A program made the translations under genes and the position numbers. The notes under the pieces are model-generated. The model saw only the letters and a list, made by a program, of their open reading frames with translations, was not told the origin of the DNA and searched no databases. 22,005 nucleotides of DNA. Origin: an uncultured Candidatus Sericytochromatia bacterium. GTDB taxonomy: Bacteria > Cyanobacteriota > Sericytochromatia > UBA7694. Positions 2,733-14,504 of the stretch are shown piece by piece. Position 1 is the stretch's first letter, and every line of letters begins with the position of its first letter. Location: the NCBI GenBank assembly GCA_964342365.1, contig CAYFGW010000055.1, positions 1 through 22,005 on the forward strand, in the 5' to 3' direction.

Positions 2733-3134
2733 ATGCAAAAAGAGCGCCTGATTGCCGCCGCTGACGCCGTGCGGGGCGAATTTAGTTTCCCCGGAAAGCG
2801 CGGATTTACGGCAGCCAGTGTTTCAGCGGCCCTGATTACTCGCAAAGGCAGTTTGTACACCGGAATTTGTATTGATGTGGCCTGTGGCATGGGGTTTTGC
2901 GCAGAACACAGTGCCATTGCGGACATGCTCAAGCACCGGGAAACCCATGTGTTAGAAATTGTCGCTCTCAATAAGCACGGTATTATTCCTCCCTGCGGAC
3001 GCTGTCGGGAGTTTTTGTATCAGGTGAATCCTGCCAATATTGATACCCGTGTTTACTTACCTCAGGATAACGTGGCCACCCTGGATGAGCTGCTGCCGGT
3101 ACACTGGCTTAAATTTAAAGGCGGTGTACCGTGA
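2733..3134 (+). CDS. cdd: Cytidine deaminase (small homotetrameric Zn enzyme)
   Basis: The zinc and catalytic motifs CAEHSAI and PCGRCRE are present (compare CAERSAL / PCGACRQ in B. subtilis Cdd). It is 133 aa, and a GAGG-like SD sits about 10 nt upstream of the ATG. Confidence 0.85.
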   Translation: MQKERLIAAADAVRGEFSFPGKRGFTAASVSAALITRKGSLYTGICIDVACGMGFCAEHSAIADMLKHRETHVLEIVALNKHGIIPPCGRCREFLYQVNPANIDTRVYLPQDNVATLDELLPVHWLKFKGGVP

Positions 3135-3592
3135 AATATATTCTACTGACCCTATGCTTACTGGCAGGATGTAGCAGCGTTCAGGTACCCATTGAAGAAG
3201 ATTTTTCACAGCGCAGAGCGGCCATGGGTGTGGCCGAACAGCATTTAGAAGCCTTGCTGCAAAAAGATATCCAAAAGGCTGTTCGCCACGTGGATTTTCC
3301 CCTGTGGATAGACGGAAAAATGTGGGAACGTGAGTCGTTTATCGCACTGATGGAGCGAGAAATCAGAGCCAAAAAGGTAGACGTTTCCTATATGCTGTTT
3401 TTGACTGCCCGTGACTTTACGGGGCTGGGGTCTGAAGACATGGTGGTTAATCTCAAAGAAAAGGGCGTAGAAAATCCTTATTTTATGCTGGTACGTCTGG
3501 AAAAAGAAAAACCGCTGGTGCTGATGATTATGGTCCACAAAGACGGACAGTGGCGTGTAAAAGGCATCAGCAATAACCGGGCAGAGTTGTAA
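3131..3592 (+). CDS. Lipoprotein of unknown function (paralog A of a tandem pair)
   Basis: The GTG start overlaps the cdd stop (GTGA). The signal peptide has a lipobox, MKYILLTLCLLAG|CSS. The mature part is a paralog of the next gene (PIEEDFSQRRAA...DFPLWIDGKMW...DGQWRVKGI). Confidence 0.7.
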   Translation: MKYILLTLCLLAGCSSVQVPIEEDFSQRRAAMGVAEQHLEALLQKDIQKAVRHVDFPLWIDGKMWERESFIALMEREIRAKKVDVSYMLFLTARDFTGLGSEDMVVNLKEKGVENPYFMLVRLEKEKPLVLMIMVHKDGQWRVKGISNNRAEL

Positions 3593-3607
3593 AACGCCAA
3601 AAGTGTC

Positions 3608-3633
3608 CTATACTGATAACATCATCAGTACAG
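3608..3633. promoter_or_regulatory. Inverted repeat cTATACTGAT-aacatc-ATCAGTAcAG (7 bp perfect arms with a 6 bp spacer, or 10 bp arms with one mismatch) between the two lipoprotein paralogs, about 15 bp upstream of the paralog B ribosome-binding site. It is a candidate operator for a dimeric regulator or a small RNA hairpin.
   Basis: Read directly from the sequence: TACTGAT at 3611-3617 and ATCAGTA at 3624-3630. Confidence 0.3.
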
Positions 3634-3643
3634 GAAATAAATT

Positions 3644-4132
3644 ATGTTTAAACCTTTTCTCTTAACGCTTACCACCCTGCTCTGCTTGAGCAGCTGTATG
3701 CCTGAAAGACTTCCCATTGACGAAGACCCTAACCAGCGTCAGGCTGCCGTAAAAGCCGCCAGAGCGTATATGAATGCCTTACAAACCCAGGACTTTGACA
3801 CCGCCGTGGCCATGTCAGGTTACCCTTTCTGGTTAGACCGTACCATCATGCCCAGCGCAGATCTGCTTGAAAAAGAATACCGGCGAGAATTAGATGGCGA
3901 TAACGAACTGGGGCGCTGGAAGCTCTTGCGGGCCCGGTTTTATAGCCGTGAAGATATGGAAATATTTGCCGAGCGACTGGTCAAACGTTTGTCCGATAAA
4001 AATATTCCCACTGAGCATTTTGTAGTGCTTCAGTACGAGGATCAGCGGGGAGACCGCAAGCGCAGCGAAAATATTTTGCTGATGATGGCTTTTGAAGAAG
4101 GGCAGTGGCGGGTTTACGGGTTGGAAGATTAA
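3644..4132 (+). CDS. Lipoprotein of unknown function (paralog B)
   Basis: The signal peptide has a lipobox, MFKPFLLTLTTLLCLSS|CM. The mature region aligns with paralog A (PIDEDPNQRQAAVKAARAYMNALQTQDFDTAV...YPFWLDRTIM...EGQWRVYGL). An AGGAAA SD lies upstream. Confidence 0.7.
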   Translation: MFKPFLLTLTTLLCLSSCMPERLPIDEDPNQRQAAVKAARAYMNALQTQDFDTAVAMSGYPFWLDRTIMPSADLLEKEYRRELDGDNELGRWKLLRARFYSREDMEIFAERLVKRLSDKNIPTEHFVVLQYEDQRGDRKRSENILLMMAFEEGQWRVYGLED

Positions 4133-4139
4133 AAGGGTC

Positions 4140-4240
4140 GAAATAGGGCATACCCGTCAGGGGGCGTTCCGGCCTTCAGCCTTCAAGACCCCTTCTGGGC
4201 ATACCCTATTTCTCTGGCTTCTTTTTGTGCTGTTTTTGGT
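4140..4240 (+). terminator. A 73-nt imperfect palindromic element (GAAATAGGG...CCCTATTTC outer arms enclosing direct GGGCATACCC repeats and a GC-rich core) followed by a T-rich tract. It is a probable rho-independent terminator for the lipoprotein genes, or a REP/MITE-like intergenic element.
   Basis: It starts 8 bp after the paralog B stop. The 9-bp arms at 4140-4148 and 4204-4212 are perfectly complementary, inner pairing is partial, and tctctggcttctttttgtgctgtttttgg follows. Confidence 0.4.
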
Positions 4241-4327
4241 TGGTGGGTGTATGTGAGAGGTTCGCCCTGAGAAAGATACTGAAAAACATTGGCGAGTGCG
4301 TGGCATAGAGCATTAGAAGGAGTGACC

Positions 4328-4618
4328 ATGAGTTTTCAAAACCAGCTTCTGGCGCTTATTACTGATTTTTTGAAGTACATAATCTCTGCTGCTGTATTTA
4401 GTGACGAGTTTATCGCGCTGTATAAGCGAGACGAAGAGTTTGTAGAGGAGCCTTATGGCCGTTTCTTTTCCGCTGTTTTTGCGGCCTGTGATGCTTATTG
4501 CGAAGATCAAAACCTCAGAGATGAATATGACCTTGATGAACAACAATTATTTGTGCGTGTTCGAGAACTCTACGAAGGATTCTCAGCTCGTAGACAATCA
4601 GGCCGCTCCGAAAGCTGA
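4328..4618 (+). CDS. Small acidic protein whose residue pattern is reminiscent of the colicin D immunity (ImmD / Colicin_immun) family. It is probably a nuclease-toxin immunity protein, possibly an orphan.
   Basis: A strong AAGGAG SD sits 6 nt before the ATG at 4328, so the upstream Met at 4289 is unlikely to be the start. The 96-aa sequence has the pattern ...AVFSDEFIALYKRD...FFSAVFAACDAYCEDQNLRDEYDLDEQQLFVRVRELYEGF, which from memory resembles ImmD (..AIEFSERICVERRRLYG...[35 protein letters not shown]). The family assignment rests on recollection, not a search. Confidence 0.55.
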   Translation: MSFQNQLLALITDFLKYIISAAVFSDEFIALYKRDEEFVEEPYGRFFSAVFAACDAYCEDQNLRDEYDLDEQQLFVRVRELYEGFSARRQSGRSES

Positions 4619-5173
4619 CAGCAGTTTTCCTCTGACGCCGGTGGACTCTACCAGTTCGGCACCCACACTGGCACCGTAGACGCCGCCAATCATGCTAACG
4701 ATGCCGCCGAATGCGCCGGTGGCTCCAAAGGCTTTCATGGCTACAGCGGTGACGCTACTGCCAGCGTAAGAGCCCAGGCCTGCGCCCGCTCCGCGCATGG
4801 CGTCAGACAAAAGGTTGGCTCCGGCTCCGGCGGCGGTCTGGTTGCCACTGGCCAGGGCTGCCCCCTGTTTGAACAGGGACAGACCGGTAAATACGGCGGC
4901 GGTGACGCCTACGGTTTTACCCACGGCTTTGACGTGAGGTTGATTGAGTACGTCTTTGATCCCGTTGGTGGCAGGGCCTTCTCCAAGAATAAGTTTAATG
5001 GGCGTTTGACTGAGTACACCTGCGGTGACACCCCGGGTAAACCAGCCGTCGGCGTGGTCGTTGTAGGGATTGGGTTCGGGAGTAGTGGGATCTGTGGGGG
5101 CTTCATAAGCGGAAGGAGATTGCCCGGATAAACCGATCATATTGCCGGGATTGAAAACAGATGTAATTTGCAT
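4598..5173 (-). CDS. Gly/Ala-rich protein with repeated GxxxG (glycine-zipper) motifs and no signal peptide. It is a putative membrane-inserting bacteriocin or toxin-like protein.
   Basis: A 191-aa ORF. A GAAGG SD lies about 8 nt upstream in an AT-rich leader. The C-terminal two-thirds reads ...GAGAGLGSYAGSSVTAVAMKAFGATGAFGGIVSMIGGVYGASVGAEL..., typical of glycine-zipper membrane peptides such as class II microcins and CdzC-like proteins. The last 21 nt overlap the convergent 4328..4618 gene. Confidence 0.55.
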   Translation of the reverse strand: MQITSVFNPGNMIGLSGQSPSAYEAPTDPTTPEPNPYNDHADGWFTRGVTAGVLSQTPIKLILGEGPATNGIKDVLNQPHVKAVGKTVGVTAAVFTGLSLFKQGAALASGNQTAAGAGANLLSDAMRGAGAGLGSYAGSSVTAVAMKAFGATGAFGGIVSMIGGVYGASVGAELVESTGVRGKLLSAFGAA

Positions 5174-5287
5174 GGAACGACCTTCTTTTTTAAACTCAAT
5201 ACACTGTTTTACTTATGGTGGTGTGGCGTGTGTGTCTTTCTTAAATTAACTATTTATTACTCGTAAAATAACCTTGTCTTAAATAAA

Positions 5288-5323
5288 GAAAAGTCCCCTG
5301 ACGTTAAATCAGGGGACTTTTTA
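5288..5323 (-). terminator. Rho-independent terminator downstream of nrdJ (bidirectional hairpin)
   Basis: There is a perfect 11-bp stem, AAGTCCCCTGA (5291-5301) and TCAGGGGACTT (5309-5319), with a 7-nt loop. T/A-rich runs flank it on both sides, tttctttattt on the minus strand and ttttt on the plus strand. It lies 35-70 bp past the nrdJ stop. Confidence 0.8.
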
Positions 5324-5357
5324 GTATGATTTAGCCTTCTAGAGTTTCAGAAAAACC

Positions 5358-8150
5358 TTAGGAGCAACCGCTGGTGGCACCACAGTTCAGACATTTATAG
5401 CAAGAACCGTTACGCACCATGGAGGCTGAACCACAACCCATACAGGGAGGCGCATCCTGGCTGTTTACAAAGGACATTCCTTTTTGCTCCGACTCCACAA
5501 TGGCTTTTTCACCATTAGACATCGGTTTTTCCGCAGGTGCAGCTTTGGCCGTAGGCGCAGCTTTTGCCACGGGGGCATCAGACTTCTCAGTGGCTGCCAC
5601 CGCAGTATGAACCGCCTGTGCTTCTTCTGTGGACAGGAAGCGCAGGGCCAGCCAGCGGAAGATATAGTCCATGATGGACTTGGCAAAGGGAATCTCTTTG
5701 TTGCCCGTGTAGCCAGAGGGCTCAAAGCGGGTGTGAGACAGTTTGTCCACCAGTACCTGTAAAGGTACGCCGTACTGTAAAGCCAGCGATACAGAGGTGG
5801 CAAAGGCGTCCATCAGTCCAGAAATCACGCTGCCTTCTTTGGCCATAGTAATAAAGATTTCACCCGGAGATCCGTCTTCGTAGGTTCCCACGGTCACATA
5901 ACCTTTGTGTCCGGCAATGCTGAAGCGATGGGTCAGGGCCTGACGCTCATTGGGTAAGCGACGACGGCGGGGGCCCACGGCCTTTTCTTCTTTGGGCGTG
6001 TCTTTGGCCTTACCGGTGTTGAGGGGCTGGGTGCGTTTGCTGCCGTCTCTGTAAATGGCCACAGCTTTAACACCCAGTTTCCAGGCTTCTACATAGGCGT
6101 CAAAAATATCGTCCACGTTCACGTCGGTGGGCATATTCACGGTTTTTGAAATAGCGCCGCTAATAAAGGGCTGAACGGCTCCCATCATGCGGATATGACC
6201 CATATAGTGAATGGAACGACTGCCTTTGAGGGCTTTAAAGGCACAGTCAAAGACGGGCAGGTGCTCTTTTTTGAGTTCAGCGGCGCCTTCTACGGTGTCG
6301 TTCTCGTCGAGATAGGCCAGAATATTGCTGGACTCCTCGGGGGTGTACCCCAGGTTTTTGAGGGCCAGGGGAATGGTCTGGTTCACAATTTTCATGGAAC
6401 CGCCGCCCACCAGGCGCTTGTACTTGATCAGGGCAATATCGGGTTCCACACCGGTGGTGTCACAATCCATTAAGAAAGCAATGGTGCCGGTAGGAGCCAG
6501 TACGGAGACCTGTGCGTTGCGGTAGCCATACTTTTCACCCAGGGCCAGAGCTTGATCCCAGGATTTTTGCGCAGCGACTTTGATGTTGTCGTGGCGCAGA
6601 CCGTCGTTCACGTCTTTGACCGCCGCACGGTGCATTTGAATCACCTTGAGCATGTGGTCTTTGTTGGGCGCGTAGCCTTCAAAAGAACCTACCACCGACG
6701 CAATTTCAGAGGACACTTTGTACGCTTCGCCCGTCATGAGGGCCGTAATGGCTGCGGCATAATCTCTGCCGGTGTCACTGTCATAAGGCAGTCCCTGCGC
6801 CATGAGAATCGCGCCCAGGTTACCGTAACCTAATCCTAAGGTGCGGTAGCGGTGGCTGTTGGCTTCAATAGAGGCTGTGGGGTAGCTGGCCATATCCACC
6901 ACAATTTCCTGAGCCGTAATCAGCACGCGCACGGTGTGCTTAAAGGCTTCTACATCAAAGACACCGTCGTTGTAATACTTCATCAGGTTAATGGACGCCA
7001 GGTTGCAGGCGGTGTCATCGAGGAACATATACTCAGAGCAGGGGTTAGAACCGTTGATACGGCCTGAAGCCTTGGAAGTGTGCCAGCGATTGATGGTGCT
7101 GTCATACTGCATGCCGGGGTCACCACAAATCCAGGTGCCTTCACACATCCGCATGAGCAGTTCGCGGGCCTTATGGGTTTCTACAATAGAGCCATCGGTG
7201 ACCGCGCGGGTATGCCAGTCTTCATCGTTGATGGCAGCCTGCATAAATTCATCGGTGACCCGCACGGAGTGGTTGGCGTTTTGAAAGTGCACGGAATCAT
7301 AAGCGCCGCCGGGCACGTTGAAGCCACCGTCATAACCGGCGTCAATCAGGGACCATGCTTTTTTCTCTTCGCTGGACTTGGAATCCACAAATTCCACAAT
7401 ATCCGGGTGATCTACGTTTAAGATGACCATTTTGGCCGCACGACGGGTTTTGCCGCCGGATTTGATCACGCCCGCAAAAGCGTCGTAGCCGCGCATAAAG
7501 GAAACGGGGCCGGAGGCCTCGCCACCGCCGGAGAGACGTTCTTTAGAGGAACGAATGGTGGAGAAGTTGGTACCGGTGCCGGATCCCCACTTAAAGAGCA
7601 TGCCTTCGGTTTTGGCCAGGGTCAGAATAGAACTCATATCGTCTTCAACGGAGTTAATAAAACAGGCGGAACACTGAGGCCTGGGCTCAATGCCTACGTT
7701 GAACCACACGGGACTGTTAAAGGCCGCACGCTGATTCACCAGAATAGAGGTCAATTCTTTATGGAACGTGTGACCGGCTTCTAAGCTTTTGAAGTAGCCC
7801 TGTTCCAGGCCCCAGCGAGCCATGGTGTCTGCCACACGGCCAATGAGCTGTTTGACGCTGTGTTCCCGATCAGGAGAGTCCATCTGGCCCGAAAAATACT
7901 TGGAAACCACCACGTTGGTGGCCTGTTGTGACCACGACCGGGGTACTTCTACATTTTTTTGCTCAAAAATGGTTTCGCCTTTTTCGTTGGTGATGGCAGC
8001 GGTGCGCTGTTCCCACTCTAATTCTTCAAAAGGATGTACGCCTTCCGTGGAATAGTAAGACAAAAAATCCATGCCGTTGTCGCTATAGACAAAGGGTTTT
8101 TCGTGTTCAGCCAGGGTTCCTGGGGGATGTTTAACTTGCGTATTAGACAT
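5358..8150 (-). CDS. nrdJ: Class II (adenosylcobalamin-dependent) ribonucleotide reductase NrdJ with a C-terminal Cys-rich Zn-ribbon
   Basis: About 930 aa with extensive RNR class II signatures (N-terminal ...FVYSDNGMDFLSYYSTEGVHPFEELEWE..., NPCSEY, C-terminal CMGCGS...CYKCLNCG). The ATG at 8150 is preceded by a GGAG SD. The track's extra first codon, TTG at 8153, is less likely to be the start. Confidence 0.95.
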   Translation of the reverse strand: MSNTQVKHPPGTLAEHEKPFVYSDNGMDFLSYYSTEGVHPFEELEWEQRTAAITNEKGETIFEQKNVEVPRSWSQQATNVVVSKYFSGQMDSPDREHSVKQLIGRVADTMARWGLEQGYFKSLEAGHTFHKELTSILVNQRAAFNSPVWFNVGIEPRPQCSACFINSVEDDMSSILTLAKTEGMLFKWGSGTGTNFSTIRSSKERLSGGGEASGPVSFMRGYDAFAGVIKSGGKTRRAAKMVILNVDHPDIVEFVDSKSSEEKKAWSLIDAGYDGGFNVPGGAYDSVHFQNANHSVRVTDEFMQAAINDEDWHTRAVTDGSIVETHKARELLMRMCEGTWICGDPGMQYDSTINRWHTSKASGRINGSNPCSEYMFLDDTACNLASINLMKYYNDGVFDVEAFKHTVRVLITAQEIVVDMASYPTASIEANSHRYRTLGLGYGNLGAILMAQGLPYDSDTGRDYAAAITALMTGEAYKVSSEIASVVGSFEGYAPNKDHMLKVIQMHRAAVKDVNDGLRHDNIKVAAQKSWDQALALGEKYGYRNAQVSVLAPTGTIAFLMDCDTTGVEPDIALIKYKRLVGGGSMKIVNQTIPLALKNLGYTPEESSNILAYLDENDTVEGAAELKKEHLPVFDCAFKALKGSRSIHYMGHIRMMGAVQPFISGAISKTVNMPTDVNVDDIFDAYVEAWKLGVKAVAIYRDGSKRTQPLNTGKAKDTPKEEKAVGPRRRRLPNERQALTHRFSIAGHKGYVTVGTYEDGSPGEIFITMAKEGSVISGLMDAFATSVSLALQYGVPLQVLVDKLSHTRFEPSGYTGNKEIPFAKSIMDYIFRWLALRFLSTEEAQAVHTAVAATEKSDAPVAKAAPTAKAAPAEKPMSNGEKAIVESEQKGMSFVNSQDAPPCMGCGSASMVRNGSCYKCLNCGATSGCS

Positions 8151-8153
8151 CAA

Positions 8154-8482: not shown

Positions 8483-9292
8483 TTAGTTTTCGGGATTTCT
8501 TGACAAAAGTAACCGTTCGCCCAACCACATAAGCACCAGTCCCAACTCAAATAAAACAATCAGGGTACTGGCCAGCAGGGTCTGGGTCATCATGTCCACC
8601 GAAGGCGTAATGACCGCTGCCACCACAAAGCTCACCAGAATGGCGTAGCGACGTTGGGACACCAACAGTTGACGCTCCACAATGCGAAAAATGCCCAGAA
8701 TTAACATGACAATGGGCACCTGAAACATCAGACCGGTACTAAAAATCAGCACCGAAGCAAAACCCACAAAGCGGTCAATAGACAGCATGGGCTGAATGCC
8801 TTCGGGCGTAAAACCAATTAAGAATTGCAGGCCCAGGGGCAAAAGTAAGAAGTAGGCAAACATGACCCCTGCCAGAAAGAGGCCGTAACTGAACACAATA
8901 ATGGGCATTAACACCCGACGCTGCCAGCGCTCTAAGGCCGGTCCCACAAACCAGAACACTTCTCGTAGCACCACGGGTACCGCCAGGAACAGACCAATCA
9001 AAATAGACATGCGCATGACGGCGGTAAAGCCTTCGGCCGGAGATACAATCACAAACTGTACGTTAGCAATGCGAGACTGAAGCATTTCCAGCAGCGGCTG
9101 GTGAAAGTAAAAGCCTGCAGCAGCACCAATCACCACCGCTACTGCACAAATAATCAGGGCCCGGCGCAGTTCTCCCAGATGCTGAAAAAAGCCCATTTCT
9201 CCGCGATCTTCTTGTACCACAACCTCTGGCAAGTGGTCAGGATCCGCCTGCTTGCGATCTTTTTCCGTTTCACTAAAAGGATGTTCAGTCAT
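8483..9292 (-). CDS. tatC: Sec-independent (Tat) protein translocase subunit TatC
   Basis: Polytopic membrane protein with a TatC-type N-terminus (MGFFQHLGELRRAL..) and six hydrophobic segments. The chosen start, ATG at 9290-9292 (MTEHPF...), lies 2 nt after the upstream methyltransferase stop. The longer track ORF from 9337 would overlap the upstream gene by ~50 nt. Confidence 0.85.
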   Translation of the reverse strand: MTEHPFSETEKDRKQADPDHLPEVVVQEDRGEMGFFQHLGELRRALIICAVAVVIGAAAGFYFHQPLLEMLQSRIANVQFVIVSPAEGFTAVMRMSILIGLFLAVPVVLREVFWFVGPALERWQRRVLMPIIVFSYGLFLAGVMFAYFLLLPLGLQFLIGFTPEGIQPMLSIDRFVGFASVLIFSTGLMFQVPIVMLILGIFRIVERQLLVSQRRYAILVSFVVAAVITPSVDMMTQTLLASTLIVLFELGLVLMWLGERLLLSRNPEN

Positions 9293-10085
9293 GAGGCGTG
9301 TCCTGTGAAGCCTCTTGTAAGCCCTCTTGTAAACCATGCTGGCGAAGATACTCGTGGGCCAACATGGCGCCAGCGGTCACCACGTTAAGGGATTCTACCC
9401 GGGCGTGGATGGGAATGCGCAGCGTCATCCCCGCCAGTTCCCGCAAATCGGGATGTAACCCTTGCCCTTCGTGACCCAGAGCCAGTAGCATTTTTTCGGG
9501 CAGTGGGCTGGCTACGCTCAGGCTGTGAGCCTCTGCGGCAGTGGCTACCAGTGTCCAGCCGCCGTTCAGGTAGTTGCTGAGTGCAGGAATATCCACCTGC
9601 ATCACGGGCAAACGCAGGCTTGCTCCCATGGAGCCCCGAATCACTTTAGACTGAAAGGGATCGGGGGTGGGGCCAAAACTTAAGATGCCCCGCCAGTTCA
9701 GGGCATCCGCCAGACGACACAGGGCGCCAAAGTTACCGGGGTCTTGCAGACGATCTGCCACAAACCAGGCGCTTGCCCGCTGTGGATCTTCGGGAATGTC
9801 TTGCATGCGAAACACCGCTAATGCGTCGGGAGCAGAGCTCATTTGGGAGGCATACTGCATGAGTTCGGCGGGGAGTTCGTACAAAGCAAAATGATCCAGC
9901 GCAGCCTCCGACAGCATCATGCCCTCACGCACAAAGATCTGCTCGGCCTGCCAGCCGTTGCTCAGGGCTTCTTCAATTAATACCCGGCCTTCAATCACAA
10001 AAGCACCGTTTTTCTGACGGTATTTCCTTTGCGCTAACTGGCGCAGATGTTTTATCTTAGGGTTAGATCGACTATGTATCAACAT
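9285..10085 (-). CDS. TrmH/SpoU-family RNA 2'-O-methyltransferase (RlmB/YacO-like)
   Basis: The N-terminal substrate-binding motif is present (SNPKIKHLRQL...GAFVIEGRVLIEEAL). SpoU methylase motifs are also present (DPGNFGALCRLADALN, GHEGQGL, SLNVVTAGAMLAHEY). Confidence 0.8.
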   Translation of the reverse strand: MLIHSRSNPKIKHLRQLAQRKYRQKNGAFVIEGRVLIEEALSNGWQAEQIFVREGMMLSEAALDHFALYELPAELMQYASQMSSAPDALAVFRMQDIPEDPQRASAWFVADRLQDPGNFGALCRLADALNWRGILSFGPTPDPFQSKVIRGSMGASLRLPVMQVDIPALSNYLNGGWTLVATAAEAHSLSVASPLPEKMLLALGHEGQGLHPDLRELAGMTLRIPIHARVESLNVVTAGAMLAHEYLRQHGLQEGLQEASQDTPHD

Positions 10086-10109
10086 GTGAGGTATATTGTA
10101 CCGCGGCTT

Positions 10110-12074
10110 ATGAGAGAAAAGGTATGGATTGGACTACGGATTGTTCTGGCCCTCTGCGCCCTCGGCGGAGGATATTTGCTGCTGCGCAAACTCTGGTTTC
10201 TGCGTCTGGACCAGCCGCTGTACCTGCTGGGACTGCTGCTTTTAATCCCCGCGGTGCTTCTGCTGCGTCACTATAGTCGGCGACAGCAGGAGCGTTTAGA
10301 CCATCTCTATGAACACCCGCTTCAGTCCCGCCTGTCTATTCGAGGGCCCGCGGCGCTGTGGAAGCAGCACTTGCCGCTAATGGCCCTGTTTGCCTGTGGT
10401 ATGGTGGCTCTGGCCCGTCCCCAGGGGCCGATGATCTTTAGTGAGAGTACCAGCAGTGGTATCGACATTCTTATCGGCATTGATGTATCAGACAGTATGA
10501 AAGCCACTGACGAAGCTTATCCCAATCGCATGGGTGCTTCGGCAAACGTCATTCGTCAGATGCTGCCCTTTTTTGAGGGAGATCGCGTGGGGCTATTTGT
10601 GTTTAGTGGTGAAGCCTTTAGTCTGGCTCCCTTTACTTATGACCACGGGACGTTAAACACTTTTCTGGATGAAATCAGTCCGGACCTGTTGCCCTCCGAA
10701 ACCACGGACTTAGAAGAAGCCTTTCAACATGCGGTGAAGCGCTTTGGACTCGATAAGACAGAAGCAAACAAGACGGGTAATACGCCGGTGCAAGAAAAAG
10801 CGGGTCAATTGCTCATGCTGTTTAGTGATGGGGAAAACCAGCTGGGGGATTATCAGGATGAAGTGAAAACCCTGGCCCGAAATAAAGTACCCGTATTGAC
10901 CGTGGGCGTGGGCACCACACAGGGGGCTCGCATTCCTGAAAACGGCCTCATGGGCAGAGGCTATAAAGTGTGGCAGGGACAGTACGCCATCAGTAAACTC
11001 AATCCCACCCTCCTGAACAAAATTTCTGACGCCACGGCGGGCACCTATTTGCCCCTGAAAAAGGTCAATCAGCTGCCTGCGGCCCTGCAAGCTGCCAGGT
11101 CCAATTTGTATTTAAAAAGTAGCGATCGTAAAACCCAGACCTTTGAAGAACGCTATATGTACTGGATTGGTTTGGGAATTTTGCTCTGGCTGCTGTTGCC
11201 CCTGCTTTTGTCGGGCCGGGAATTTGTTAGGCCTCCTTCTTTTCAGCGGGCCCTTCGTCAGCAGAAAATCAGGCTCAATTCCACACAAGTGGCGCTGGTG
11301 TTCTTTTTGTTGTCTCCGCTGCTACAGAGCGCCTGGAGTCCTCAACAGGGCTGGAAAAGCCTGATGGACTACTGGCAACAAACCCGGGGCCAGCAGGCTT
11401 ACGAAGACGGCAATTATGAGGCCGCAGAAGAATCCTTTGCGCCTGAAGAAGATGGTAATGCGACCCTGCGTAATAATCAGGCCCAGTCTCAGTACCGCAG
11501 CGAAGACTACGATCAGGCCATCGAAAACTTCAAAAAGAATCTGGATGCCACCGAGCTAAATGCTCAGCAAAAAGCTAACACCCACTACAATCTGGGCAAT
11601 AGTTATTATCGTAAAGGGCAGGATCGCTGGGAGGATGCGGTGAAGGCTTATGAAGAAGCCCTGAAGCTCAATCCCAAAGACAAACAGGCCTTAGAAAACC
11701 TGAATTTTGTGCAACAAAAGCTGGCAGAGCAGCAGCAAAAACAGCAGGGCAACGACAACAAGAATCAGCAAAACCAGCAACAAAATCAGCAGGGCAACAA
11801 CGATGACCCTCAGAATCAGCAGCAGCCGCAGCAGAATCCGCAAAATGATCCTCAGCAGGAGCCCCAGGAACCGCAAACGCCCCAAAACGAACCCACGCCG
11901 GAGCCTTCGCCTCAATATTATGATCAAAAAGAGCTAGAAGAAGCCCTCAAACAGCGGGAACGGGACGAGCGCAACAACAAGAACAATTTTCACCGCTTCC
12001 GCAAAAAGCAAAAAGAGGCCCGCCAGAATCAGGATCCGTGGGACGCGGCGGCCAACGGCGTGAAAAACTGGTAA
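10110..12074 (+). CDS. BatA/BatB-like aerotolerance-type membrane protein. It has N-terminal transmembrane helices, a VWA domain with a MIDAS motif, a third transmembrane helix, TPR-like repeats, and a Q/N/P-rich low-complexity tail.
   Basis: LDQPLYLLGLLLLIP...LARPQ matches the BatA N-terminal signature. DVSDSM is a MIDAS motif. YNLGNSYYRKGQDRWEDAVKAYEEALKLNPKD is TPR-like. The tail reads QQQKQQGNDNKNQQNQQQNQQGNNDDPQNQQQPQQNPQ.... The start is ambiguous among 10047, 10074 and 10110; I chose 10110 (MREKVW). Confidence 0.75.
   Translation: MREKVWIGLRIVLALCALGGGYLLLRKLWFLRLDQPLYLLGLLLLIPAVLLLRHYSRRQQERLDHLYEHPLQSRLSIRGPAALWKQHLPLMALFACGMVALARPQGPMIFSESTSSGIDILIGIDVSDSMKATDEAYPNRMGASANVIRQMLPFFEGDRVGLFVFSGEAFSLAPFTYDHGTLNTFLDEISPDLLPSETTDLEEAFQHAVKRFGLDKTEANKTGNTPVQEKAGQLLMLFSDGENQLGDYQDEVKTLARNKVPVLTVGVGTTQGARIPENGLMGRGYKVWQGQYAISKLNPTLLNKISDATAGTYLPLKKVNQLPAALQAARSNLYLKSSDRKTQTFEERYMYWIGLGILLWLLLPLLLSGREFVRPPSFQRALRQQKIRLNSTQVALVFFLLSPLLQSAWSPQQGWKSLMDYWQQTRGQQAYEDGNYEAAEESFAPEEDGNATLRNNQAQSQYRSEDYDQAIENFKKNLDATELNAQQKANTHYNLGNSYYRKGQDRWEDAVKAYEEALKLNPKDKQALENLNFVQQKLAEQQQKQQGNDNKNQQNQQQNQQGNNDDPQNQQQPQQNPQNDPQQEPQEPQTPQNEPTPEPSPQYYDQKELEEALKQRERDERNNKNNFHRFRKKQKEARQNQDPWDAAANGVKNW
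11690..11900 (+). repeat. Low-complexity CAG/CAA/AAC/CCN-rich coding tract (the Q/N/P-rich tail of the VWA-TPR protein)
   Basis: Visible triplet-repeat-like composition. The antisense and alternate-frame ORFs at 11691..11927 and 11707..11937 are artifacts of this tract. Confidence 0.6.
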
Positions 12075-12899: not shown

Positions 12900-14504
12900 A
12901 TGAGTCAGCAAGAGCGACCCGCCCGCTCCTTGCGACAGGGGGGACAACGTCGGGTATACAGAGACTGGAGCGCCGCTGAAGCCGCATTAGAAGGTGGAAC
13001 TGATGCTCTCAATAGCGGGTTGGGCGATGAAATGGACCAGCTCATTGCCTCACAAGCGCAGGAAATGCAGATGATTGATACCCTGCAAGATGAGGAAGTA
13101 GAAGCAGAAGTTGGCGGCAGCTATTCTGCGCCGGTGCAGCCTGCGGCCAGTCCCTCGCCCCATCAGCAGGACATGGCACCGCTTAAGGTGATTGTGCCCG
13201 ACGCTCCCCAGAGTGAAGAACCCAAAGAAAAACCCAAAGTGACCCGCATGGACGGTCGAAAGCTCCAGCGGGCGCGGCGCTATAGCGAACTGAAGGCCGA
13301 CGACGAGCGCAAAAAGCGCGAAGAAGCGGAAGCGGCAGAAAAAGCCGCTGCAGAGGCTGCCAAACAAGAGGCCAGCCGCAAAGCACCGCCCGATCGCTCC
13401 GCCAAAACCCGGGCGTTGCCCCAGCATCAGACCACCCAGTTGCAGGGCAATCTGCAGGATGTGAACAAAAAAATTGAAGAAACCCGCGAAAACGTCAAAA
13501 GTACCGCAGAGGCCTTATCCGAGAATATCAAAGAGATTTCCGATAAAATCACCGTCAAGGTGGTGGGCGGGATTCAGCGTTTTAGCAAGGGTTTAAACCG
13601 CTTTATCAACCGTGTGGGCAAAGACGTGGATCCCGTGGAGCGGGAAACCGACTTCGAAGATGAACCGTTGCCCACAGACGCACCCGCTCAGCCTGCCATA
13701 AAAGAAGACGCTGCCCCTCTGAACGTGCCCCGTGACCCCCTTGGTCATGTGGAAACGGTGCCCAAAGTGATGTATGCGGATCTACTCAAAGAAAAAGTGT
13801 ACTTTCAGGATTTCAAAAAAAATCCCCTCGTGGAATCTCCCGAAAACCTCTCTGCTGAGGATTTACAAACCGCTTTTGTAGAAGCGGCTTTGCAAGATAT
13901 TCGTCGCTGCGTCAAACTGGTGCGAGAATTACCCGACCCCAAAGAAGGGCCTTATTCAGGACTTCCCGTGGCCTTTATTTTCAAAAACGTGCGCGAAAAC
14001 GATTTGTACTTCTTTATGCATTATGTGCTCTCCAAGCCGGGGCCCTTCCGCAAGAAAACCTTTAAAATTTCTGAGGCCTTTGGCACCTGGATTTTAAAAC
14101 GTTCTGCCATTACAGTGGTGGCGCGGCCTTTTCCAGAAGTACCGGATATCCATTATTTGCCGTTGTATAAGCAAAATATTCGCTTTACCACCCGCGATCG
14201 TAAGTCTTTGATTCTGGCTTCTAACAAAACGCCGGAGGCTTTTGAAGGGGAATTTATGGAGCGAGCCATCGACGAGGTGAAAAACTGTGTGCCGCTGGTG
14301 GAAAATTTCCCACCCACGGACAAGGGCCCCTATCAGAAGCGGCCCCTGAAACAGGTGTTTCGCTATGTACAGGAGCGGGATATTCACTTCTTCCTGCACT
14401 ATATCCAGGCCAACCCGGACGTGTTTCAGGGACAGAACTTTAAGTTTGCGGAAGCCTTTGCCAGCTGGATTCTAAAGCGTTCTCACGAAACCCAGCTGCC
14501 TTAA
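12900..14504 (+). CDS. Hypothetical 534-aa protein. It has an N-terminal charged, low-complexity (disordered or coiled) region and two tandem copies of a ~95-aa domain. I recognise no known family.
   Basis: The ATG immediately follows the crotonase stop (TAAATG), so the two are translationally coupled. There is no signal peptide. The repeats are ...VKLVRELPDPKEGPYSGLPVAFIFKNVRENDLYFFMHYVLSKPGPFRKKTFKISEAFGTWILKRS and ...VPLVENFPPTDKGPYQKRPLKQVFRYVQERDIHFFLHYIQANPDVFQGQNFKFAEAFASWILKRS. Confidence 0.7.
   Translation: MSQQERPARSLRQGGQRRVYRDWSAAEAALEGGTDALNSGLGDEMDQLIASQAQEMQMIDTLQDEEVEAEVGGSYSAPVQPAASPSPHQQDMAPLKVIVPDAPQSEEPKEKPKVTRMDGRKLQRARRYSELKADDERKKREEAEAAEKAAAEAAKQEASRKAPPDRSAKTRALPQHQTTQLQGNLQDVNKKIEETRENVKSTAEALSENIKEISDKITVKVVGGIQRFSKGLNRFINRVGKDVDPVERETDFEDEPLPTDAPAQPAIKEDAAPLNVPRDPLGHVETVPKVMYADLLKEKVYFQDFKKNPLVESPENLSAEDLQTAFVEAALQDIRRCVKLVRELPDPKEGPYSGLPVAFIFKNVRENDLYFFMHYVLSKPGPFRKKTFKISEAFGTWILKRSAITVVARPFPEVPDIHYLPLYKQNIRFTTRDRKSLILASNKTPEAFEGEFMERAIDEVKNCVPLVENFPPTDKGPYQKRPLKQVFRYVQERDIHFFLHYIQANPDVFQGQNFKFAEAFASWILKRSHETQLP
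13824..14482 (+). repeat. Intragenic tandem duplication: two diverged copies of a ~95-codon domain, approximately 13824-14105 and 14232-14482
   Basis: A protein-level self-alignment shows the conserved pattern F.EA..D...CV.LV...P...GPY...P....F..V.E.D..FF.HY....P..F....FK..EAF..WILKRS. Confidence 0.7.

Follow-up and report, generated by a model that had tools for sequence, protein, structure and literature searches.

Two overlapping genes in the genome of an uncultured Candidatus Sericytochromatia bacterium raise the question of whether an immunity-like gene joined to a toxin-like gene forms a module with it, or whether the two have met by chance. The genes lie in a 22-kb stretch of DNA (contig CAYFGW010000055.1, positions 1 to 22,005; hereafter the window). 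One, on the plus strand, encodes a 96-amino-acid (96-aa) acidic protein of the colicin D immunity protein (ImmD) type; the other, on the minus strand, encodes a 191-aa protein rich in glycine and alanine. They converge, and their 3' ends overlap by 21 nt. A first-pass annotation of the sequence had offered two readings, an orphan immunity gene or an atypical toxin/immunity module with a glycine-zipper, bacteriocin-like partner. We hold, with good though not full confidence, that the immunity gene is an orphan, inserted tail to tail with the gene of an unrelated, probably membrane-associated protein of the Sericytochromatia lineage. All scans for toxin and secretion genes at the home locus were limited to the window.

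The ImmD-type gene and its overlap

The plus-strand open reading frame (ORF) in the ORF list spans 4289..4618 and has an in-frame ATG at 4328. Direct reading of the sequence places a Shine-Dalgarno-like motif, GAAGGAG, at 4316..4322 (+), 5 nt 5' of this ATG, and the immunity gene of 96 codons is placed at 4328..4618 (+) from the Pfam match and the ORF coordinates. The first-pass annotation had noted a resemblance to ImmD and proposed a check by Pfam profile search. Indeed, the protein scores 49.8 bits with PF09204 (Colicin_immun), for which the cut-off is 22 bits (E 5.4e-13); residues 6-81 align on profile positions 4-84 of 88, with the domain ending at residue 81. The protein is acidic (pI 4.34, Asp+Glu 19.8%), helical by prediction and, by inspection, carries no N-terminal signal sequence. 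On the strength of this profile match, it is a clear member of the ImmD/Colicin_immun family, although a pairwise search of the PDB sequences did not recover ImmD, which is too divergent.

The structure of ImmD in complex with colicin D (PDB 1V74) is a four-helix bundle. ImmD is described as a tRNA mimic of four helices that occludes the active site of colicin D (Graille et al. 2004, as cited in PMC5536347). Zhang et al. (PMC3482391) identify it as the main immunity protein that goes with Tox-ColicinD domains, which are found in polymorphic toxins of many phyla. The 96-aa protein resembles ImmD in its nearly full-length profile match, similar size, strong acidity, prediction as all-helical and lack of a signal peptide. 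It differs in a C-terminal tail of 15 residues, part of which is encoded antisense to the neighbouring gene, and its gene adjoins no colicin-D-type toxin gene. Its host is Sericytochromatia-like, a group that is not among the lineages listed as carrying Tox-ColD (PMC3482391).

The 191-aa gene occupies 4598..5173 (-), as established from the ORF list, its homologues and the ratio of nonsynonymous to synonymous substitution (dN/dS). By coordinates and sequence, the convergent coding overlap takes up 4598..4618. Within it, the two genes run on opposite strands in identical codon register: read in antisense, the conserved codons that spell ...SAFGAA* in the 191-aa protein supply immunity residues 91-96 together with the stop, a TGA opposite a conserved Ser codon. 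The junction and overlap are 100% identical in two other public assemblies (ENA ERZ17294083 and Logan ERR868468); thus, the overlap is not a chimeric join or an assembly artefact. A terminator scan found no terminator-like site between the two genes, which means that their transcripts must overlap. No Rfam match to an RNA family was found anywhere in the window. The ORFs, the start at 4328 with its Shine-Dalgarno motif, the overlap of 21 nt and the convergent geometry are therefore as the first-pass annotation had described them.

Comparison with relatives and the orphan reading

If the two genes formed a unit, they would be expected to travel together. The comparison covered the loci L001/L004 (a Sericytochromatia metagenome-assembled genome), L002, L003, L006-L009, L010/L011 and L012. 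Eight distinct loci besides that of the window carry a member of the 191-aa family, and a tblastn search with the immunity protein found a Colicin_immun gene at none of them; it returned only copies of the window sequence itself, so that the pairing occurs in one of nine distinct loci. The window, L001/L004 and L002 share the gene order VWA-TPR, SpoU, TatC, nrdJ, ..., 191-aa gene, ..., DUF445, with DUF445 83-86% identical among them. At L003, L010/L011 and L012 the 191-aa gene stands in other contexts, again without the immunity gene.

The DNA alignment places the break precisely, as homology among the relatives stops exactly at the 191-aa stop codon. From there to DUF445, L001 holds no gene (only the remnant of a lipoprotein gene), L002 holds one, a lipoprotein gene that ends 5 nt from the 191-aa gene, and the window holds four, namely the immunity gene, two paralogous lipoprotein genes and a cytidine-deaminase-like gene. 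The immunity gene also departs from its surroundings in composition: its GC content at third codon positions (GC3) is 0.371, versus 0.581 ± 0.043 for 19 other genes of the window. A word search of 5.8 billion protein clusters recovered the 96-aa protein only as itself, and no close relative was found in metagenome contigs, viral contigs or plasmids. Taken together, the foreign GC3, the lack of a close relative, the insertion-like break in homology and the lack of co-occurrence indicate that the immunity gene is a recent foreign insertion.

The arrangement of the pair does not suit a module either, since the genes converge rather than lying on one strand for co-transcription, and their codon compositions are sharply different. 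The immunity proteins of membrane ionophore toxins are small, very hydrophobic membrane hairpin proteins (PMC11630599), and an acidic protein of a nuclease-immunity family does not fit this type. The first-pass annotation had itself pointed to a mismatch between nuclease-type immunity and a pore-former-like neighbour; the mismatch is real, and it argues against partnership. Its suggestion of an atypical toxin/immunity module is not supported, given the eight loci without a Colicin_immun gene, the end of homology at the 191-aa stop codon and the outlying GC3. We conclude that the two genes are not a toxin/immunity pair and are chance neighbours.

Where, then, is the toxin that the immunity protein answers? 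No toxin or secretion-system domain was found in any window gene or in the spacer ORFs, and so far as the window goes the immunity gene is an orphan, in keeping with the other alternative of the first-pass annotation. Because no toxin gene was found there, it most likely acts as an orphan against the toxins of competitors, and it may well be an orphan in the genome as a whole. Upstream of it lies a spacer of 195 nt (4133..4327, +) that is absent from the relatives. Within the spacer, two 24-nt arms (4140-4163 / 4189-4212) form an imperfect inverted repeat, after which comes a T-rich stretch; considered as a special element, the hairpin at 4140-4212 was rejected, its folding energy being no better than that of shuffled sequences (z = 0.20). 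The ORFs of the spacer have no Pfam match and thus no detectable remnant of a toxin gene.

We propose the following course of events. The immunity gene would have arrived by horizontal transfer, bringing some 195 nt of upstream sequence with it, and the insertion would have landed in a small variable stretch that begins exactly at the 191-aa stop codon. The immunity reading frame would then have run on across the junction into the neighbouring gene until it met a TGA, and the overlap of 21 nt is best explained as a by-product of this. Any antisense interplay arising from the geometry would likewise seem to be an incidental side effect of the insertion and not a designed one. By analogy with ImmD, the acidic, helical 96-aa protein would reside in the cytoplasm, bind the basic active-site cleft of colicin-D-type, tRNA-cleaving toxins delivered by competitors and neutralise them on entry by blocking the active site.

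Protection against foreign toxins by orphan immunity genes has been described (10.1101/471110; PMC12247911). The case presented here is like the Bacteroidales orphan immunity genes and acquired interbacterial defence (AID) clusters described in these studies, in that an immunity gene without a linked toxin has been acquired horizontally and lies in a variable chromosomal stretch. It is unlike the AID clusters in being a single gene and not an array, in having no integrase or mobile-element genes nearby, and in that protection is a prediction here.

Alternatively, a cognate colicin-D-type tRNase toxin, for example as a domain at the C-terminus of an Rhs, CdiA or bacteriocin-like protein, could be encoded elsewhere in the genome, and the immunity gene would then protect the producer and its siblings. 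The visible portion of the genome amounts to 22 kb, and the wide spread of Tox-ColicinD among phyla, with ImmD as its main partner (PMC3482391), leaves room for such a toxin. However, immunity genes normally adjoin their toxin gene directly, and here the flanking genes are those of a lipoprotein and the 191-aa protein; moreover, the window contains neither a toxin domain nor a detectable remnant of one. We regard an unlinked cognate toxin as unlikely, though it is the most credible of the alternatives considered here.

The 191-aa protein and its family

The second half of the question concerns what the immunity gene has landed beside. Gly makes up 16.8% and Ala 15.2% of the 191-aa protein, whose N-terminus lacks a hydrophobic, signal-like segment; this bears out the earlier description of a Gly/Ala-rich protein without a signal peptide. 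Its homologues form seven full-length clusters at 61-100% identity, in which the start MQI is invariant and the C-terminal half is highly conserved; the N-terminal ~80 residues are poorly conserved and modelled with low confidence. Against three orthologues the dN/dS is 0.11-0.24, with synonymous sites saturated. The first-pass annotation had allowed for a spurious GC-rich ORF; with its full-length homologues and this dN/dS, and judged by sequence conservation, the 191-aa ORF is a real, conserved gene under purifying selection.

The family is small. A profile search of 1.84 billion representative proteins returned 20 members only, of which 18 are 182-215 aa long and the remaining two 113 and 259 aa, and a search of metagenome contigs with the alignment of the close subfamily as query found no further loci. 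All three members with a named source are Candidatus Sericytochromatia and, judged from these, the family is specific to that lineage.

An AlphaFold2 model built on a 26-sequence alignment (predicted local distance difference test score, pLDDT, 66) places three long helices in the C-terminal part, at residues 81-108, 114-148 and 154-177. A Foldseek search against the PDB gave nothing significant; the best matches (E 0.34) are to Gly-rich membrane helices such as those of the V-ATPase c-ring. The first-pass annotation had seen stacked GxxxG zippers in the protein. This stands in part: particular glycines are conserved across the family (G167 is invariant, and G89, G110, G128, G134, G153 and G163 are at least 90% conserved), but the counts of GxxxG and small-xxx-small motifs are not significantly above composition in composition-preserving shuffles (p ~0.05 to 0.6). 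No significant match to the family was found in NCBIfam, PHROGs, PADLOC, the PDB sequences or phage genomes. Aquaporin Z, which surfaced in a profile search of the PDB, was set aside as a chance match (E 0.065).

The label of a glycine-zipper, bacteriocin-like protein is not upheld. None of the 26 family members matched Pfam, including its glycine-zipper, bacteriocin and toxin families, and the protein of the window has no match to the Pfam glycine-zipper families at E ≤ 1. Class II bacteriocins and microcins have a double-glycine or Sec leader and adjacent exporter and immunity genes. The conserved N-terminus of the 191-aa protein has no such leader motif, and the neighbours of its gene are nrdJ, CBS, VF530, DUF445, lipoprotein, hydrolase and transporter genes. 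Nor does it come with an exporter, a secretion-system gene or a conserved immunity partner, and in three related genomes, that of the window included, it sits in one shared housekeeping neighbourhood. With Gly-zipper_Omp, Gly-zipper_YMGG and Rick_17kDa_Anti the protein shares glycine-rich helices and some conserved GxxxG spacing, such as G163/G167; unlike them, it gives no profile match at E ≤ 1 in any of the 26 members, lacks a lipoprotein signal, is much longer and carries the variable N-terminal region of about 80 residues.

The protein also bears some resemblance to small glycine-zipper ion-channel toxins, such as Tse4 of P. aeruginosa (PMC12169545), Ssp6 of Serratia (10.1101/676247) and the ionophore domains of contact-dependent growth inhibition (CDI) systems (PMC11630599). 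The 191-aa protein falls in their range of ~170-215 aa, has no signal peptide, and is rich in Gly and Ala with marginally hydrophobic helices that are predicted to pack as a helical bundle. However, it has no detectable sequence or fold similarity to them, and its gene stands in a conserved housekeeping context under purifying selection. Toxins such as Tse4, Ssp6 and CdiA-CT EC93 are encoded beside a cognate immunity gene and linked to a secretion system or delivery domain, whereas the 191-aa gene has no conserved neighbour in the close subfamily. No type VI secretion system (T6SS) or CDI gene was found in any of the family loci examined. A T6SS effector family, the best NCBIfam match, was rejected as an identity at E 0.54.

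This resemblance raises a specific form of the module idea, in which the 191-aa protein would be a membrane toxin of the Tse4, Ssp6 or CDI-ionophore type, the 96-aa protein would have been recruited as an unconventional immunity protein or antitoxin, and the overlap would give antisense control. The Gly/Ala-rich composition, the three long, marginally hydrophobic helices without a signal peptide, a size near that of small glycine-zipper pore-forming effectors (PMC12169545; 10.1101/676247) and the physical overlap of the genes would all suit it. But the pairing is confined to that one locus, the 191-aa gene persists under purifying selection without a conserved partner, and the immunity gene looks like a foreign insertion; in addition, the known ionophore immunity proteins are hydrophobic and membrane-bound and not acidic and soluble, and no profile similarity to a toxin family was found (T6SS effector E 0.54; 0 of 26 members in Pfam toxin or glycine-zipper families). 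We consider such a pair highly improbable.

The wider surroundings of the family vary. At L001 (5042-5768) and L002 (5041-5750) two extra genes, for VF530 and a CBS-domain protein, stand between nrdJ and the 191-aa gene; in their place the window has only a spacer of 184 nt (5174..5357). This difference means that gene content is variable on both sides of the 191-aa gene. In the distant subfamily (L006 5452-6651; L007 5166-6642; L008 4044-5370; L009 5322-6648) the gene is always directly downstream of a DUF4332 gene on the same strand, and the DUF4332 product has a lipoprotein-type signal in L007 and L008; the two may constitute a conserved two-gene unit. At L003 (1-3365) and L012 (519-4835) the 191-aa gene is near genes for a FliH-like protein, unusually long at 571-574 aa, and for a type III secretion-type ATPase, and also near a gene for an internally repetitive protein of 321-323 aa without a Pfam match.

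From these contexts one might suppose that the 191-aa protein is itself a secreted or contact-delivered antibacterial, or a substrate of type III or flagellar export, whose immunity determinant is unlinked, so that the adjoining immunity gene would be a coincidence. Its strictly conserved N-terminus (MQI...), Ser/Thr/Asn/Pro-rich and without a Sec signal, would suit an exported protein, as would the position of two relatives' genes 1-4 kb from the FliH and type III ATPase genes, and the DUF4332 lipoprotein, behind whose gene the distant subfamily is always found, would be a possible partner. Nevertheless, the FliH/ATPase linkage is loose, with other genes between, and none of the six contexts of the close subfamily has a PAAR, VgrG, Rhs or secretion-system gene, or a small membrane protein that is conserved alongside. 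The chromosomal position, conserved within the subclade, is typical of a core gene. An exported antibacterial is therefore very unlikely in our view.

The 191-aa protein is most likely an endogenous, membrane-associated and probably oligomeric protein rather than a bacteriocin. It would consist of a variable N-terminal region of about 80 residues followed by three Gly/Ala-rich, marginally hydrophobic helices, which suggest a location at the membrane. Together with the insertion of the ImmD-type gene beside it, this is the explanation that we favour. Several points weigh against it. The immunity gene is carried by a single lineage, so that selection on it is not measurable, and the cognate toxin could, as said, lie elsewhere in the genome. 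In the subfamily of the window, the maximal 19-residue Kyte-Doolittle mean is 1.44, below the classical transmembrane threshold of 1.6, while distant family members reach up to 2.0 and are clearly transmembrane-like. Soluble toxins that insert into membranes show marginal hydrophobicity of this kind as well. Finally, no family member has an experimental or annotated function, and the view of an endogenous membrane protein thus rests on context and composition.

A more far-reaching reading would take both genes together. The 191-aa protein would found a new membrane-active class restricted to Sericytochromatia, with a channel or pore of three glycine-rich helices, Sec-independent export and a sister subfamily that works with the DUF4332 lipoprotein; the ImmD-type insertion would be the first sign of Sericytochromatia as targets of colicin-D-type tRNases; and transcription running on past the immunity gene might lower expression of the 191-aa gene through an antisense effect. 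Taken as a whole, this is speculative and improbable.

Neighbouring genes and implications

On the far side of the 191-aa gene, an AT-rich leader and promoter region (5174..5287, -), identified from its sequence and GC content, carries GAAGG 8 nt 5' of the ATG. Its GC content, over the 115 nt from the terminator to the start codon, is 31%, compared with 51.8% for the window. The terminator is a bidirectional hairpin at 5288..5322, found by the terminator scan as a perfect 13-bp inverted repeat, and it separates the transcription unit of the 191-aa gene from nrdJ (5358..8153, ending at 5358; NF005122, 1426.8 bits). An AT-rich leader downstream of an nrdJ terminator, as first annotated, is thus present.

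The remainder of the variable stretch up to the DUF445 gene spans 2733..4132 (+). It comprises a cytidine-deaminase-like gene of 133 aa (2733..3134, +), which is below the NCBIfam equivalog cut-offs and reaches 24 bits in Pfam, just under the threshold of 25, and two lipoprotein genes (3131..3592 and 3644..4132, both +). The lipoboxes of the latter, read from the translations, are LAGC and LSSC, and the products, of 153 and 162 aa, are paralogous (29% identical). Their similarities to NTF2-like proteins are weak hints (DUF4019 E 0.054, LEH E 0.17, PDB 2bng E 0.057).

Further along the window, the longest ORFs of the TatC, SpoU-methylase and VWA-TPR genes (8483..10085, -, and 10047..12074, +) overlap by about 40-50 nt; most likely, translation actually begins at start codons downstream of the first possible ones. 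A gene at 12900..14504 (+), between an enoyl-CoA hydratase gene and a vault-like gene, encodes a 534-aa protein without a Pfam match, whose sole match is a weak one to NCBIfam TraP (E 2e-4, far below cut-off). The vault-like gene (14524..16962, -) has a product of 812 aa without an NCBIfam match, in which MVP_shoulder (E 2.5e-31) and Vault_3 (E 8e-9) domains are recognised; here a bacterial, Sericytochromatia-like genome encodes a relative of the major vault protein.

The finding, an orphan ImmD-type immunity gene, is of a known kind; a minor, uncharacterised, lineage-specific family of 191-aa proteins is attached to it, and neither bears on a long-standing open question. It nevertheless carries a caution, as an immunity-like gene that overlaps a toxin-like gene does not by itself make a module, and it was the comparison with relatives that decided the matter here. 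The 191-aa family, compact and restricted to its lineage, is a candidate for membrane activity. For its part, an orphan ImmD-type gene would extend the evidence of conflict by tRNase toxins to the Sericytochromatia, poorly known, non-photosynthetic relatives of the cyanobacteria.

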